From the NCBI RefSeq assembly GCF_056746865.1, contig NZ_CM163382.1: DNA of 64,000 bases; one strand, given 5' to 3'. The position numbers are program-made. Every line of letters starts with the position of its first letter. Position 1 is the stretch's first letter. Below are positions 15,001 to 24,000 of the stretch, in pieces.

Positions 15001-18000
15001 CGTGGAGATGCCGCCGTGCTGCTGGCGGCACAAGCTATCCGCGCGGTGGCGCTGGGTGTTGTGGTGACAGCGTTAGTACAGGCAGTGCTTGGCGGTATCG
15101 GCCTCGCCGTATCCGGCGTACCTTATGCAACTTTGCTCACGGTGTTAATGATCCTCTCCTGCCTTGTCCAGCTTGGACCGTTGCCGGTACTGATTCCGGC
15201 GATTATCTGGCTCTACTGGACTGGCGATACCACCTGGGGAACGGTATTGTTAGTGTGGAGCGGTGTGGTTGGCACGCTGGATAACGTCATCCGCCCAATG
15301 TTAATTCGCATGGGTGCCGATTTACCGCTGATCCTGATTCTCTCTGGCGTTATTGGTGGTTTGATTGCTTTCGGGATGATCGGCCTGTTTATTGGTCCGG
15401 TTCTGTTAGCCGTTTCCTGGCGTCTTTTTGCCGCGTGGGTGGAAGAAGTCCCACCGCCGACTGACCAACCGGAAGAAGTTCTCGAAGAACTTGGCGAAAT
15501 CGAGAAACCGAATAAGTAATTTCTCATCAGGCGGCTCTGCCGCCTGATTGTTAACCCCTGCTAATTGATATTTGCTTGCTCTTCCCCATATTTTCCTGCT
15601 TACCGCCATTCAGCTGGTAGTACCTGTCGCAAATTCTTTACAGTTTTTAAACTAATGAGACGAATCTGATCGACGCAAAAAGTCCGTATGCCTACTATTA
15701 GCTCACGGTTATAAATCAACATATTGATTTATAAGCATGGAAATCCCCTGAGTGAAACAACGAATTGCTGTGTGTAGTCTTTGCCCATCTCCCACGATGG
15801 GCTTTTTTTTAACATTTTTCCGCTTCGCTACCTCGCCCCTCACGCTTTCCAATAATGTTGCACAAGATACTGTGACTCTCTTCAAGCCGTCAGCAGGCTG
15901 ATAATGTTATTTATATTTTATTGTTTATTTCATGCAGCCATTACACGATGAACGCTTATGAACTCCAGGCACTCCGCCATATTTTTGCCATGACTATTGA
16001 TGAATGCGCGACCTGGATTGCCCAGACCGGTGACAGTGAAAGCTGGCGTCAATGGGAAAATGGCAAATACGCCATTCCTGATCGTGTAGTCGAGCAACTG
16101 TTGGCTATGCGTCAGCAAAGAAAAAAACATCTTCATGCCATCATAGAGAAAATAAATAACCGCATCGGCAACAACACCATGCGTTTTTTCCCCGACTTAA
16201 CCGCGTTTCAACAAGTCTACCCTGATGGCAATTTTATTGACTGGAAGATCTATCAATCGGTAGCCGCTGAATTATATGCACACGATCTGGAGCGCCTTTG
16301 TTAATTTTCCAAAGAAAGGAATTGTCGTTGTTACAACAATAATGAACGGATGCTGACACAACATCGCTTCACTTTTTAAAGCACCTTTGCTAAGTAGAAC
16401 CTATGAAAAATCCCTATTTCCCTACCGCACTGGGGTTGTATTTTAATTACCTGGTGCATGGTATGGGCGTCATTTTGATGAGCCTGAATATGGCCTCGCT
16501 GGAGACGCTTTGGCAGACTAATGCCGCAGGCGTCTCAATAGTTATCTCATCGCTGGGTATTGGTCGATTAAGTGTCTTGCTTTTTGCAGGATTATTATCC
16601 GATCGCTTTGGTCGCCGCCCTTTTATCATGCTCGGGATGTGCTGCTATATGGCCTTCTTTTTTGGCATCCTGCACACCAATAACATTATTATCGCTTATG
16701 TTTTGGGCTTTCTGGCGGGAATGGCAAACAGTTTTCTCGATGCAGGCACATATCCCAGTTTGATGGAAGCTTTTCCACGCTCACCGGGGACAGCCAATAT
16801 TTTAATTAAAGCATTTGTTTCCAGCGGACAATTTTTGTTACCGCTAATCATTAGCCTGTTAGTGTGGGCTGAACTGTGGTTCGGTTGGTCCTTTATGATT
16901 GCTGCAGGCATTATGTTTATTAACGCTCTGTTTTTATACCGTTGTACGTTCCCACCCCATCCGGGTCGTCGCTTACCTGTCATAAAGAAAACCACCAGAT
17001 CTACGGAACATCGCTGTTCAATTATCGATTTAGCCAGTTATACCTTATATGGTTATATCTCAATGGCAACGTTTTATCTGGTTAGCCAGTGGCTGGCACA
17101 GTACGGACAATTTGTTGCAGGCATGTCATACACTATGTCGATCAAACTACTTAGGAAGGTGCGAACAAGTCCCTGATATGAGATCATGTTTGTCATCTGG
17201 AGCCATGGAACAGGGTTCATCATGAGTCATCAACTTACCTTCGCCGACAGTGAATTCAGCAGTAAGCGCCGTCAGACCAGAAAAGAGATTTTCTTGTCCC
17301 GCATGGAGCAGATTCTGCCATGGCAAAACATGGTGGAAGTCATCGAGCCGTTTTACCCCAAGGCTGGTAATGGCCGGCGACCTTATCCGCTGGAAACCAT
17401 GCTACGCATTCACTGCATGCAGCATTGGTACAACCTGAGCGATGGCGCGATGGAAGATGCTCTGTACGAAATCGCCTCCATGCGTCTGTTTGCCCGGTTA
17501 TCCCTGGATAGCGCCTTGCCTGACCGCACCACCATCATGAATTTCCGCCACCTGCTGGAGCAGCATCAACTGGCCCGCCAATTGTTCAAGACCATCAATC
17601 GCTGGCTGGCCGAAGCAGGCGTCATGATGACTCAAGGCACCTTGGTCGATGCCACCATCATTGAGGCACCCAGCTCGACCAAGAACAAAGAGCAGCAACG
17701 CGATCCGGAGATGCATCAGACCAAGAAAGGCAATCAATGGCACTTTGGCATGAAGGCCCACATTGGTGTCGATGCCAAGAGTGGCCTGACCCACAGCCTA
17801 GTCACCACCGCGGCCAACGAGCATGACCTCAATCAGCTGGGTAATCTGCTGCATGGAGAGGAGCAATTTGTCTCAGCCGATGCCGGCTACCAAGGGGCGC
17901 CACAGCGCGAGGAGCTGGCCGAGGTGGATGTGGACTGGCTGATCGCCGAGCGCCCCGGCAAGGTAAGAACCTTGAAACAGCATCCACGCAAGAACAAAAC

Positions 18001-21000: not shown

Positions 21001-24000
21001 CTGGTCACTGAATGCGTGTATAACCCGCATATGACGAAGTTATTGCAGCAGGCGCAACAAGCTGGTTGCAAAACGATTGATGGATACGGCATGTTGTTGT
21101 GGCAAGGGGCTGAACAGTTCACGTTATGGACTGGCAAAGATTTCCCTCTGGAATATGTTAAACAGGTCATGGGGTTCGGTGCCTGACAGGCTGACCGCGT
21201 GCAGAAAGGGTAAAAAATGAAAACCGTAACTGTAAAAGATCTCGTCATTGGTACGGGCGCACCTAAAATCATCGTCTCGCTGATGGCGAAAGATATCGCC
21301 AGCGTGAAATCTGAAGCTCTCGCCTATCGTGAAGCGGACTTTGATATTCTGGAATGGCGTGTTGACCACTATGCCGACCTCTCCAATGTGGATTCTGTCA
21401 TGGCGGCGGCAAAAATTCTCCGTAAAACCATGCCAGAAAAACCGCTGCTGTTTACCTTCCGCAGTGCCAAAGAAGGCGGCGAGCAGGCGATTTCCACCGA
21501 GGCTTATATTGCACTCAATCGTGCAGCCATCGACAGCGGCCTGGTTGATATGATCGATCTGGAGTTATTTACCGGCGATGATCAGGTTAAAGAAACCGTC
21601 GCCTACGCCCACGCGCATGATGTGAAAGTTGTCATGTCCAACCATGACTTCCATAAAACGCCGGAAGCCGAAGAAATCATTGCCCGTCTGCGCAAAATGC
21701 AGTCCTTCGACGCCGATATTCCTAAGATTGCGCTGATGCCGCAAAGTACCAGCGATGTGCTGACGTTGCTTGCCGCGACCCTGGAGATGCAGGAGCAGTA
21801 TGCCGATCGTCCAATCATCACGATGTCAATGGCAAAAACTGGCGTAATTTCTCGTCTGGCTGGTGAAGTATTTGGCTCGGCGGCAACTTTTGGTGCGGTA
21901 AAAAAGGCCTCTGCACCAGGGCAAATCTCGGTAAATGATTTGCGCACGGTATTAACTATTTTACACCAGGCATAAGCAATAATATTTCGGCGGGAACATC
22001 CTCCCCCGCCGAACTAAAAAAATATATTTAACCGTATTTAATAAAAATATTTCGTGAGTCTCTGTGCGCTAATTCTCCATCTGGCGTAGGGAAAATCACA
22101 CCTGAATCAGGAATTAACAATGAAACCTGTAAAACCACCTCGTATTAATGGACGAGTGCCGGTCCTGTCGGCACAGGAAGCGGTGAATTATATTCCCGAC
22201 GAAGCAACACTTTGTGTGTTAGGCGCTGGCGGCGGTATTCTGGAAGCCACCACGTTAATTACAGCTCTTGCTGATAAATATAAACAGACTCAAACGCCAC
22301 GTAATTTATCGATTATTAGTCCGACAGGGCTTGGCGATCGCGCCGACCGTGGTATTAGTCCGCTGGCGCAAGAAGGTCTGGTGAAATGGGCATTATGCGG
22401 TCACTGGGGACAATCGCCGCGTATTTCTGATCTCGCAGAACAAAATAAAATTATTGCTTATAACTATCCACAAGGTGTACTTACACAAACCTTACGCGCC
22501 GCCGCAGCCCACCAGCCTGGTATTATTAGTGATATTGGCATCGGAACATTTGTCGATCCACGCCAGCAAGGCGGCAAACTGAATGAAGTCACTAAAGAAG
22601 ACCTGATTAAACTGGTCGAGTTTGAAAACAAAGAATATCTCTATTACAAAGCGATAGCGCCAGATATTGCCTTCATTCGCGCTACCACCTGCGACAGCGA
22701 AGGCTACGCCACTTTTGAAGATGAGGTGATGTATCTCGACGCATTGGTTATTGCCCAGGCGGTGCACAATAACGGCGGTATTGTGATGATGCAGGTGCAG
22801 AAAATGGTTAAGAAAGCCACGCTGCATCCTAAATCTGTCCGTATTCCGGGTTATCTGGTGGATATTGTGGTGGTCGATCCGGATCAAACCCAACTGTATG
22901 GCGGTGCGCCGGTTAACCGCTTTATTTCTGGTGACTTCACCCTTGATGACAGCACCAAACTTAGCCTGCCCCTAAACCAACGTAAATTAGTTGCACGGCG
23001 CGCATTATTCGAAATGCGTAAAGGCGCGGTGGGGAATGTCGGCGTCGGTATTGCTGACGGCATTGGCCTGGTCGCCCGGGAAGAAGGTTGTGCTGATGAC
23101 TTTATTCTGACGGTAGAAACAGGTCCGATTGGCGGAATTACTTCACAGGGTATCGCCTTTGGCGCGAACGTGAATACCCGCGCCATTCTGGATATGACGT
23201 CCCAGTTTGATTTTTATCACGGTGGTGGTCTGGATGTTTGTTATTTGAGTTTTGCTGAAGTCGACCAGCACGGTAACGTCGGCGTGCATAAATTCAATGG
23301 CAAAATCATGGGCACCGGTGGATTTATTGATATCAGTGCCACTTCGAAGAAAATCGTTTTCTGCGGCACATTAACTGCGGGCAGTTTAAAAACAGAAATT
23401 ACCGACGGCAAATTAAATATCGTCCAGGAAGGACGGGTGAAGAAATTTATTCGGGAACTACCGGAAATTACTTTCAGCGGAAAAATCGCTCTCGAGCGAG
23501 GGCTGGATGTTCGTTATATCACTGAGCGCGCAGTATTCACACTGAAAGAAGACGGCCTGCATTTAATCGAAATCGCCCCTGGCGTCGATTTACAAAAAGA
23601 TATTCTCGACAAAATGGATTTCACCCCAGTGATTTCGCCAGAACTCAAACTGATGGACGAAAGATTATTTATCGATGCGGCGATGGGTTTTGTCCTGCCT
23701 GAAGCGGCTCATTAACAGGAGTATCACGATGGATTTTTCTTTAACTGAAGAACAAGAACTGCTGCTGGCCAGTATTCGCGAACTGATTACGACTAACTTT
23801 CCGGAAGAGTATTTCCGCACCTGCGATCAAAACGGGACATACCCGCGTGAATTTATGCGGGCACTGGCGGATAACGGTATTTCCATGCTTGGCGTGCCGG
23901 AAGAATTTGGTGGTATCCCTGCGGATTACGTCACCCAAATGCTGGCGCTGATGGAAGTGTCAAAATGCGGTGCCCCGGCATTTTTGATCACCAACGGTCA

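Follow-up and report, generated by a model that had tools for sequence, protein, structure and literature searches.

The Escherichia coli ydiM-ydiN-ydiB-aroD locus with an IS5-interrupted ydiM: candidate hydroaromatic-acid transporters and a possible coupling to downstream CoA and electron-transfer genes

What do the two major facilitator superfamily (MFS) transporters encoded next to ydiB and aroD in Escherichia coli carry, for which enzymes, and what is lost when one of them is destroyed by an insertion sequence (IS)? The question is raised by a stretch of 64,000 nucleotides of contig NZ_CM163382.1 (NCBI RefSeq assembly GCF_056746865.1), hereafter the window, in which ydiM is split by IS5. 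The window holds the standard, well-known E. coli ydiL-ydiM-ydiN-ydiB-aroD locus. Genes, order and spacing are the same as in E. coli K-12, whose YdiM and YdiN are placed by TCDB in 2.A.1.15 as 2.A.1.15.12 and 2.A.1.15.13 (PMC10588857); the window differs in that its ydiM carries IS5 at nucleotide 751. The explanation that we favour, and that we hold as a whole to be somewhat likelier true than false, combines a YdiM-null locus, import of hydroaromatic acids by the transporter family, loss of a QuiR-type activator, non-redundancy of the two paralogs and coupling to the genes downstream. The features on which it bears, named from lists of open reading frames (ORFs) and from the RefSeq annotation of near-identical genomes, are these:

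15948..16304, + strand: ydiL, small helix-turn-helix protein (Pfam PF08965, Aca2_YdiL, 202.8 bits)
16403-18816, + strand: ydiM, interrupted gene (ORF list and reconstruction)
16403..17153, + strand: ydiM N-terminal fragment, codons 1-250, first six-helix half
17154..18348, + strand: IS5, 1195 bp, splitting ydiM after nucleotide 751
17222-18202, + strand: IS5 transposase gene, co-directional with ydiM (NCBIfam IS5 transposase, 365.7 bits against a cutoff of 140)
18353..18816, + strand: ydiM C-terminal fragment, codons 251-404, cut off from promoter and start codon
18817..19042, + strand: ydiM-ydiN intergenic region, the site of a divergent quiR-like gene in relatives
19043-20308, + strand: ydiN, intact, 421-residue MFS transporter, preceded by an AGGAG ribosome-binding site
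20320-21186, + strand: ydiB, intact, NAD(P)-dependent quinate/shikimate dehydrogenase
21217-21975, + strand: aroD, intact, type I 3-dehydroquinate dehydratase

In the mechanism proposed, YdiM and YdiN would belong to an MFS family that imports a hydroaromatic acid, namely shikimate, quinate or the 3-dehydro form of either, for YdiB and AroD. YdiB would convert quinate to dehydroquinate and interconvert dehydroshikimate and shikimate, and AroD would convert dehydroquinate to dehydroshikimate. The ancestral ydiN operon would have been switched on by a divergent, shikimate-sensing LysR activator of the QuiR type. In Proteobacteria the operon would continue functionally into ydiF-ydiO-(ydiP)-ydiQRST-fadK, so that the imported acid would not only feed aromatic amino-acid synthesis and would probably also be processed anaerobically as a coenzyme A (CoA) thioester.

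The linkage of the transporters to the two enzymes was followed with an alignment in which twelve diverse homologs were added to YdiN and YdiM, and with a scan of GTDB, one genome per species, which gave 80 loci. The window proteins were mapped onto these by tblastn, and linkage was counted in the 72 loci flanked left and right by 3 kb or more. Of these, 66 contain a homolog of YdiB or of AroD and 63 contain both; in 60 one of them lies within 400 bp of the transporter gene. The order ydiL-ydiM-ydiN-ydiB-aroD-ydiF is kept in 37 of the 41 YdiF-containing proteobacterial loci, from Escherichia to Yersinia, Dickeya and Brenneria, with ydiL upstream of ydiM in all 37 proteobacterial loci that have ydiM. 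The four loci without ydiL and ydiM (L041, L043 and two from Sutterella) still have ydiN-ydiB-aroD-ydiF-ydiO. In Lactobacillaceae, Clostridium, Bacillus, Megasphaera and Paenibacillus, the transporter gene stands between ydiB-like and aroD genes. Because the arrangement recurs across Enterobacterales and, in a different order, in Firmicutes, it is far beyond chance. The transporter matches YdiM best in 36 of the 39 loci without ydiF, most of them from Firmicutes; YdiM-type carriers accompany the module in Firmicutes and only YdiN-type carriers do so in other Proteobacteria. A single contig with short flanks among the 80 loci has neither YdiB or AroD nor a QuiR-like gene beside the transporter.

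The nature of the cargo is further suggested by a regulator that E. coli does not have. A LysR-type gene of about 300 residues lies between ydiM and ydiN, divergent from ydiN, in Yersinia, Serratia, Dickeya, Brenneria, Symbiopectobacterium and Prodigiosinella. It is found in 12 enterobacterial loci (L031, positions 6124-7026, minus strand, with equivalents in L028-L030, L033-L037, L039, L045 and L068). LysR homologs of 31-53% identity also occur within a few kb of the transporter in 31 of the 39 loci without ydiF, among them those of a Clostridium clade that has no ydiB or aroD nearby. The effector domain matches PDB entry 5TED with E = 8.6e-66, the next best LysR protein being BenM at 1e-25. 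5TED is the QuiR protein of Listeria, co-crystallised with shikimate (bioRxiv 10.1101/2025.04.08.647683). A YdiN homolog of Telmatospirillum has among its neighbours a dehydrogenase resembling YdiB, a chemoreceptor and a 639-residue protein built like a QuiC1/QsuB-type dehydroshikimate dehydratase.

Taken together, the conserved linkage, the QuiR-type regulator and the Telmatospirillum context make hydroaromatic-acid cargo the best-supported reading, and import rather than export the better-supported direction. With moderate confidence, we predict that the cargo is a hydroaromatic acid and that its import supplies YdiB and AroD. A preliminary description of the window had placed the tandem paralogs ydiM and ydiN upstream of ydiB and aroD on the same strand, which the ORF list and family models bear out to the coordinate. 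It had also looked to the co-occurrence of these genes, and the linkage does prove conserved. Its view of the locus as a unit for hydroaromatic uptake and conversion stands in part: linkage and QuiR-type regulators support the class of cargo, and the unit itself appears incomplete, extending to ydiF-ydiO-ydiQRST-fadK.

The QuiR-like gene is absent from the window by tblastn and, at blastn sensitivity, from 5,426 E. coli genomes, with no remnant, and it is missing in Escherichia, Citrobacter and Kosakonia. It appears that this branch has lost the regulator, and the loss of such an activator may be the reason that K-12 and laboratory strains show so little of the function. LysR is not mentioned in the 2023 study of the family (PMC10588857), and the occurrence of a QuiR-type regulator beside the ydiM/ydiN family, absent from the literature searched, is the support for the cargo class that the present analysis would add. 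A conserved block at about 18905-18990, common to species with and without the regulator (alignment A2), lies in the ydiM-ydiN gap. A -10-like TATAGT is found at 18969-18974, with an invariant TAnAnT in alignment A2 (columns T177, A178, A180 and T182), and the 11-mer ATGCAATATTC occurs twice in the gap, at 18817-18827 and 18910-18920, 93 bp apart. The block upstream of ydiN may be an orphaned LysR operator. A scan with the sigma-70 consensus was uninformative, giving fewer promoter-like sites than shuffled sequence and none in the gap; the TATAGT came to light through the alignment alone.

Family models are in keeping with these assignments. YdiB scores 667.5 bits against the quinate/shikimate dehydrogenase equivalog NF009390 of NCBIfam (cutoff 349) and AroD 291.5 bits against the type I dehydroquinase model TIGR01093 (cutoff 139.3). 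The paralogs YdiM and YdiN share 37% identity over 385 residues (E = 3e-87) and match Pfam MFS_1 with 113.4 and 115.0 bits, respectively (cutoff 33.4). Both carry the family motifs KA[MFA][VI]S[FAS]GQ[MF] and [SG]VI[TAI][LI]AQNM, derived from the homolog alignment A1, together with a neighbouring YdiB/AroD homolog or QuiR-type regulator. YdiN reaches 23.3 bits against TIGR00883, the model of ShiA-type metabolite:H+ symporters (cutoff 443.45), and YdiM does not match it. ShiA, the shikimate/dehydroshikimate permease of E. coli, resembles YdiN in being an MFS carrier for a hydroaromatic acid, if the cargo predicted for YdiN is right, and deletion of either gene raises the shikimate titre (PMC8788726). 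However, ShiA belongs to the metabolite:H+ symporter family, a different MFS family, and its gene is unlinked to pathway enzymes. A 668-residue protein of a Logan contig (P0007), in which YdiN (99% identity) is joined to shikimate dehydrogenase domains, probably arose from ydiN and ydiB by a frameshift or in the assembly.

Close parallels are the qui/qsu quinate-shikimate clusters of Listeria (qui1/qui2, under QuiR, Lmo0488), Pseudomonas, Acinetobacter and Corynebacterium, which combine a dehydrogenase, a dehydroquinase and a transporter as the window does. Unlike the window, they also have a QuiR/QsuR-type regulator and a dehydroshikimate dehydratase. The window holds no homolog of the Telmatospirillum dehydratase (best E = 0.017 over 41 residues), and among the other loci only Telmatospirillum has such an enzyme. 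Since E. coli is without it, protocatechuate is not the product.

The link of the YdiM/YdiN transporters to hydroaromatic acids is not new, having been proposed in 2006, 2009 and 2023. As reported in PMC4585142 and PMC8788726, Johansson & Liden (2006) found ydiN, ydiB and aroD co-induced under carbon limitation and proposed that YdiN moves shikimate or by-products. Hu (2009) placed YdiL, YdiM and YdiN in one group with the aro genes (PMC2672614), and Khalfaoui-Hassani (2023) noted that about 75% of YdiM/YdiN homologs adjoin a shikimate-pathway gene (PMC10588857). Deletion of ydiN raises extracellular shikimate 1.3-fold (PMC8788726), which fits re-uptake.

What, then, does IS5 do to this locus? 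The element is a full-length copy of 1195 bp with 16-bp terminal repeats (GGAAGGTGCGAAC/TAAG) and a 4-bp target duplication, CTTA, at 17150-17153 and 18349-18352. In silico removal of IS5 and one CTTA copy restores an intact ORF of 404 residues for YdiM. The repaired 10.6-kb region differs by a single nucleotide from that of E. coli strain 118UI, which is IS-free and has the same annotated gene order. In the interrupted gene, the frame of the N-terminal fragment runs on into IS5, adding RKVRTSP before a stop at 17176. A Kyte-Doolittle scan of YdiM gives hydrophobic peaks in both halves, and the break, between codons 250 and 251, falls at the onset of the seventh hydrophobic segment, with a peak at residues 245-263. 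The split gene leaves a half-transporter of 257 residues and is a null allele.

Known IS5 insertions in E. coli share the length, the repeats and the 4-bp duplication; the window copy differs from them in being intragenic, 695 bp from the next start codon, and in its target. The preferred target of IS5 is YTAR, which CTTA does not match, the unoccupied site being ACTACTTAGTATC, with TTAG one base over. IS5 insertions in E. coli are known both for gene knock-outs and for activating bgl, glpFK, flhDC and fucAO. Because the window copy is intragenic and 695 bp from the next start, a knock-out is likelier than activation. As the conserved block upstream of ydiN is intact as well, IS5 would remove YdiM without starving ydiN-ydiB-aroD. 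YdiM alone should be lost, and any polarity on the three genes should be slight.

The allele is a recent one-off. A 240-bp probe of the left IS5 junction is spanned on both sides in 0 of 5,426 complete E. coli genomes, and the absence of the exact insertion from this set gives no sign of selection. The nearest case is strain GMM076, in which IS5 (3 nucleotides different from the copy in the window) interrupts ydiM at a point 230 bp upstream of the break seen here and is flanked by a TTAA duplication; in strain EECO1006, IS5 is accompanied by loss of the 5' end of ydiM. Other isolates carry ISKpn26 in the ydiL-ydiM gap, in the ydiM-ydiN gap or at the extreme end of ydiN, and one carries IS1 inside ydiN. 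These insertions look like scattered, independent events. A hot spot for IS5 was considered and dropped, since about 17 hits in 5,426 genomes are, by our own rough estimate, near chance for a 4.6-kb target. An apparent orientation bias, all IS5 and ISKpn26 copies found pointing one way, was likewise set aside as an artefact: the search joined same-strand pieces only, and opposite-strand copies could not reach the list at 80% coverage. In strain ABW_A19 (L006, 3367-4347), ISKpn26 sits immediately ahead of ydiB, at the extreme 3' end of ydiN, and strain EC931 (L004, 2046-4088 and 5900-7793) has IS1 in the 5' end of ydiN and an IS5-associated deletion from ydiF to ydiQ. That natural isolates tolerate insertions inside or just after ydiN suggests that aroD expression is not strictly dependent on transcription from the ydiN promoter or from upstream.

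In the preliminary description one of the two transporters was taken to be broken by IS5, and the 1195-bp element, its CTTA duplication and the ORF restored on removal leave ydiM as that gene. The accompanying suggestion that the strain is a natural test of transporter redundancy is weak: the paralogs are only 37% identical, they lie in separate units in relatives, the allele recurs in none of the 5,426 genomes, and defined ydiM knockouts are already available (PMC10588857). A regulator gene splits ydiM from ydiN in relatives, which points to ancestrally separate transcription units; ydiM would form one with ydiL, and ydiN would head the enzyme operon. Both paralogs are retained in 37 of the 41 proteobacterial loci, and their being kept despite deep divergence suggests different jobs, be it different substrates or uptake as opposed to product release. 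YdiM and YdiN are probably not redundant.

The second part of the favoured explanation concerns the genes that follow aroD. Between 14 and 32 kb the gene order is ydiJ, ydiK, rprA, ydiL, ydiM, ydiN, ydiB, aroD, ydiF, ydiO, ydiP (on the opposite strand), ydiQRST and fadK, with the following features downstream of aroD (assigned with NCBIfam, or Pfam for ydiP):

22120-23715, + strand: ydiF, family I CoA transferase
23729-24880, + strand: ydiO, acyl-CoA dehydrogenase, nearest to CaiA
24923..25834, - strand: ydiP, AraC-family regulator
26150-26914, + strand: ydiQ, FixABCX-like electron transfer
26934-27872, + strand: ydiR, FixABCX-like electron transfer
27928-29217, + strand: ydiS, FixABCX-like electron transfer
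29214-29507, + strand: ydiT, FixABCX-like electron transfer
29564-31210, + strand: fadK, acyl-CoA ligase

In the proteobacterial loci, ydiB-aroD is followed by ydiF in 41 of 41 and by ydiO in 40 of 41. Such synteny alone could be inherited; the rearranged clusters of Sutterella and of five metagenomic lineages (loci L089-L091, L094, L095 and L099) argue against this. In two loci from Sutterella (Betaproteobacteria; L044 and L047, GC 0.60), fadK-ydiT-ydiS-ydiR-ydiQ occupies one strand and ydiN-ydiB-aroD-ydiF-ydiO is divergent on the other, with ydiL, ydiM and ydiP absent; L094 (YdiO 80%) has the same layout. L089 and L090 (YdiO 83%, GC 0.42) run MFS, YdiF, YdiO, electron-transfer flavoprotein (ETF) beta, ETF-alpha, YdiB, AroD, FixC-like and FixX-like, so that the two shikimate enzymes are interleaved within the electron-transfer operon, and a YdiP-like regulator adjoins. 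The order in L099 (YdiO 83%) is MFS, YdiF, YdiO, ETF-beta/alpha, YdiB, AroD and a MaoC-type hydratase. A DHquinase_I gene stands between ETF-alpha and FixC in L095 (YdiO 77%). L091 (GC 0.38) has YdiB, AroD, an acyl-CoA dehydrogenase, MFS, a YdiO-like protein, ETF, FixCX, FadK-like, YdiF-like and another YdiO-like protein. The YdiP-like regulators of the rearranged clusters L089 and L091 are 45-48% identical to YdiP (tblastn).

All YdiO homologs of at least 77% that were examined (those of the loci just described) occur together with DHquinase_I, a CoA transferase of the YdiF type and an MFS carrier resembling YdiN. These clusters show at least five gene orders and a GC content of 0.38-0.60 (four loci measured); ydiQR homologs are kept as well, with ydiST and fadK homologs in most. 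In contrast, none of six YdiO homologs at or below 74% (63-74%; Desulfovibrio, E. albertii and others) has that set; they are solitary or stand with CaiB-type transferases, without shikimate genes in the operon. The association with shikimate genes is specific to YdiF/YdiO orthologs, surviving at least five gene orders, and it is with moderate confidence that the ydiN operon is predicted to work with ydiF-ydiO-ydiQRST-fadK. A second type of cluster (L100 of E. albertii, L092 and L093 of Desulfovibrio, L097 and L098) consists of a CaiB-type CoA transferase, an MFS carrier and one or two acyl-CoA dehydrogenases, with ETF genes in most and FixCX and a CoA ligase in some, and has no operon shikimate genes; L098 has a shikimate kinase and a type II dehydroquinase 3-4 kb away. 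This second type presumably acts on a different acid. In the window, a GC-rich hairpin occupies 21986-22013, between aroD and ydiF. The + strand continues after it with an A-run, and the - strand has only a tail poor in T. As a terminator of aroD it is not clear-cut, so read-through from aroD into ydiF is possible.

A more specific proposal, which we put forward tentatively and consider rather unlikely as it stands, is that ydiN-ydiB-aroD-ydiF-ydiO-(ydiP)-ydiQRST-fadK would form a single anaerobic pathway like Cai/Fix, with quinate and shikimate of dietary or plant origin as electron sink. YdiN would import the acid, YdiB and AroD would convert quinate to the alpha,beta-unsaturated dehydroshikimate and shikimate, YdiF or FadK would form the CoA thioester, and YdiO, fed by YdiQRST, would reduce the ring double bond of the enoyl-CoA. 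Thioesters of the unsaturated acids shikimate and dehydroshikimate with CoA would be enoyl-CoAs, which YdiO could reduce. The product would be a dihydroshikimate-type acid; such acids have long been known from lactobacilli and gut flora. The model is the carnitine system caiTABCDE with fixABCX, an anaerobic electron sink with CoA transferase, ligase and enoyl-CoA reductase and with electron-transfer proteins dedicated to it. Like it, the window encodes a ligase, FadK, together with a CoA transferase, YdiF, and a transporter; it differs in that its CoA transferase is of family I and not of the CaiB type, its transporter is MFS and not BCCT, and the hydroaromatic link of its genes is suggested by gene neighbourhood only. 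YdiO has its own equivalog, the second-best NCBIfam model being CaiA (452 bits against a cutoff of 540). YdiQ scores 322 against FixA (cutoff 219), YdiS 642 against FixC (cutoff 610) and YdiR 321 against FixB (cutoff 549), and the second-best NCBIfam model of FadK is cyclohexanecarboxylate-CoA ligase. The library searched contained no literature that ties ydiO, ydiF, ydiQRST or ydiP to shikimate or quinate. Functional information on ydiO is limited (PMC6412132), and only a cold-shock role is reported for YdiP. The downstream coupling, absent from the literature searched, is possibly new and would make a testable pathway hypothesis.

Other accounts of the same genes have to be weighed, of which the most serious is that of a self-contained salvage unit, in line with the preliminary description. 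On this account quinate or shikimate would be imported by YdiM or YdiN and converted by YdiB and AroD, the product would only top up the shikimate pathway, and ydiF to fadK would be unrelated neighbours. In Firmicutes only ydiB-MFS-aroD is indeed kept, in many cases with a QuiR-like regulator, and CoA genes are lacking; aroD is the biosynthetic dehydroquinase of E. coli, and the hairpin mentioned above lies just downstream of it; however, that hairpin has no T-run on the + strand, and the YdiF, YdiO and ETF genes stay with ydiN, ydiB and aroD through at least five rearrangements, some of which interleave ydiB and aroD between ETF and FixC genes. We regard this account as unlikely, though with a real share of the probability. 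Efflux in place of uptake, with YdiN and YdiM exporting surplus intermediates or by-products such as quinate or dehydroshikimate, would fit the proposal of Johansson & Liden, which according to the summary in PMC4585142 came from transcriptomics of shikimate overproducers, and YdiM and YdiN do show weak NCBIfam similarity to efflux-type MFS families. Yet deletion of ydiN raised, and did not lower, extracellular shikimate, and the shikimate-activated regulator of relatives, like the catabolic dehydratase and the chemoreceptor of Telmatospirillum, is typical of uptake systems, so that export is quite improbable. There is a similarly slim chance that the cargo of YdiM is unrelated to hydroaromatic acids (copper or a copper ligand for assembly of the bo3 oxidase, or solvents to be expelled), in which case the aro neighbourhood would be uninformative and IS5 would affect respiration. 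Against it, YdiM-type carriers are precisely those that lie between ydiB and aroD in Firmicutes and beside QuiR-like regulators, and the authors of PMC10588857 themselves name no cargo for YdiM. Finally, IS5 might act through regulation, either blocking read-through from ydiM into ydiN-ydiB-aroD or activating the downstream operon as at bgl, glpFK and flhDC. The transposase gene is co-directional with the operon, the ydiN promoter could be weak in E. coli, which has no QuiR-type activator, and other isolates have IS5 or ISKpn26 at several sites of the locus. But the distance to ydiN and the intact promoter-like region, the whole regulator gene that separates ydiM from ydiN in relatives, the artefactual nature of the orientation bias and the lack of any sign of selection all speak against such an effect, to which we assign little probability.

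The explanation that we favour, hydroaromatic import with downstream coupling, has points of its own against it. ydiO, ydiQRST and fadK are said to have been assigned by Campbell et al. in 2003 to anaerobic fatty-acid oxidation, which is the conventional view and the main counter-argument. The Firmicute clusters have no CoA, acyl-CoA dehydrogenase or ETF genes, so the coupling is clade-specific, and the metagenomic loci carry no taxonomic label, so that only GC content and gene order indicate how many of the lineages are independent. YdiM and YdiN score 38.8 and 40.9 bits against TIGR00895, the aromatic acid:H+ symporter model of NCBIfam, far below its cutoff of 418.55, and no solved structural homolog of the transporter is detectable by sequence search. 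No direct transport assay of YdiM or YdiN was found in the literature, and the curators of EcoCyc treat quinate as a dead-end metabolite and see no compelling case for its transport in K-12 (PMC3781023). A ydiM deletion has no active bo3 oxidase and lower copper uptake (PMC10588857) and is also reported to have an isoprenol tolerance phenotype; the link of either to hydroaromatics is not obvious.

Two observations concern the surroundings of the locus. The small RNA gene rprA lies between ydiK and ydiL at 15705-15812 (coordinates transferred from the annotated strain 118UI), and its terminator hairpin is detected at 15783-15802. Downstream of fadK there are an ORF at 34968-36002 and, on the opposite strand, a 792-residue ORF at 31267-33645. 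From the K-12 order we take these to be aroH (DAHP synthase) and ppsA (phosphoenolpyruvate synthase), respectively. If our assumption about aroH is right, a third shikimate-pathway gene lies less than 13 kb from aroD.

A textbook locus, a published hypothesis on its transporters and a one-off IS5 knock-out add little by themselves. The comparison across species sharpens two puzzles, namely the role of YdiB in an organism for which quinate is a dead end and the real substrates of ydiF, ydiO, ydiQRST and fadK. The regulator of Yersinia, or a constitutive promoter, offers a way round the missing phenotype of laboratory strains. Were the electron-sink proposal true, it would explain why E. coli retains a quinate dehydrogenase although it is unable to grow on quinate, and would provide a natural substrate for ydiO and ydiQRST. 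A single pathway could also allow functions to be assigned to about ten poorly characterised E. coli genes and could reveal how bacteria convert hydroaromatic acids of plant origin in the gut.

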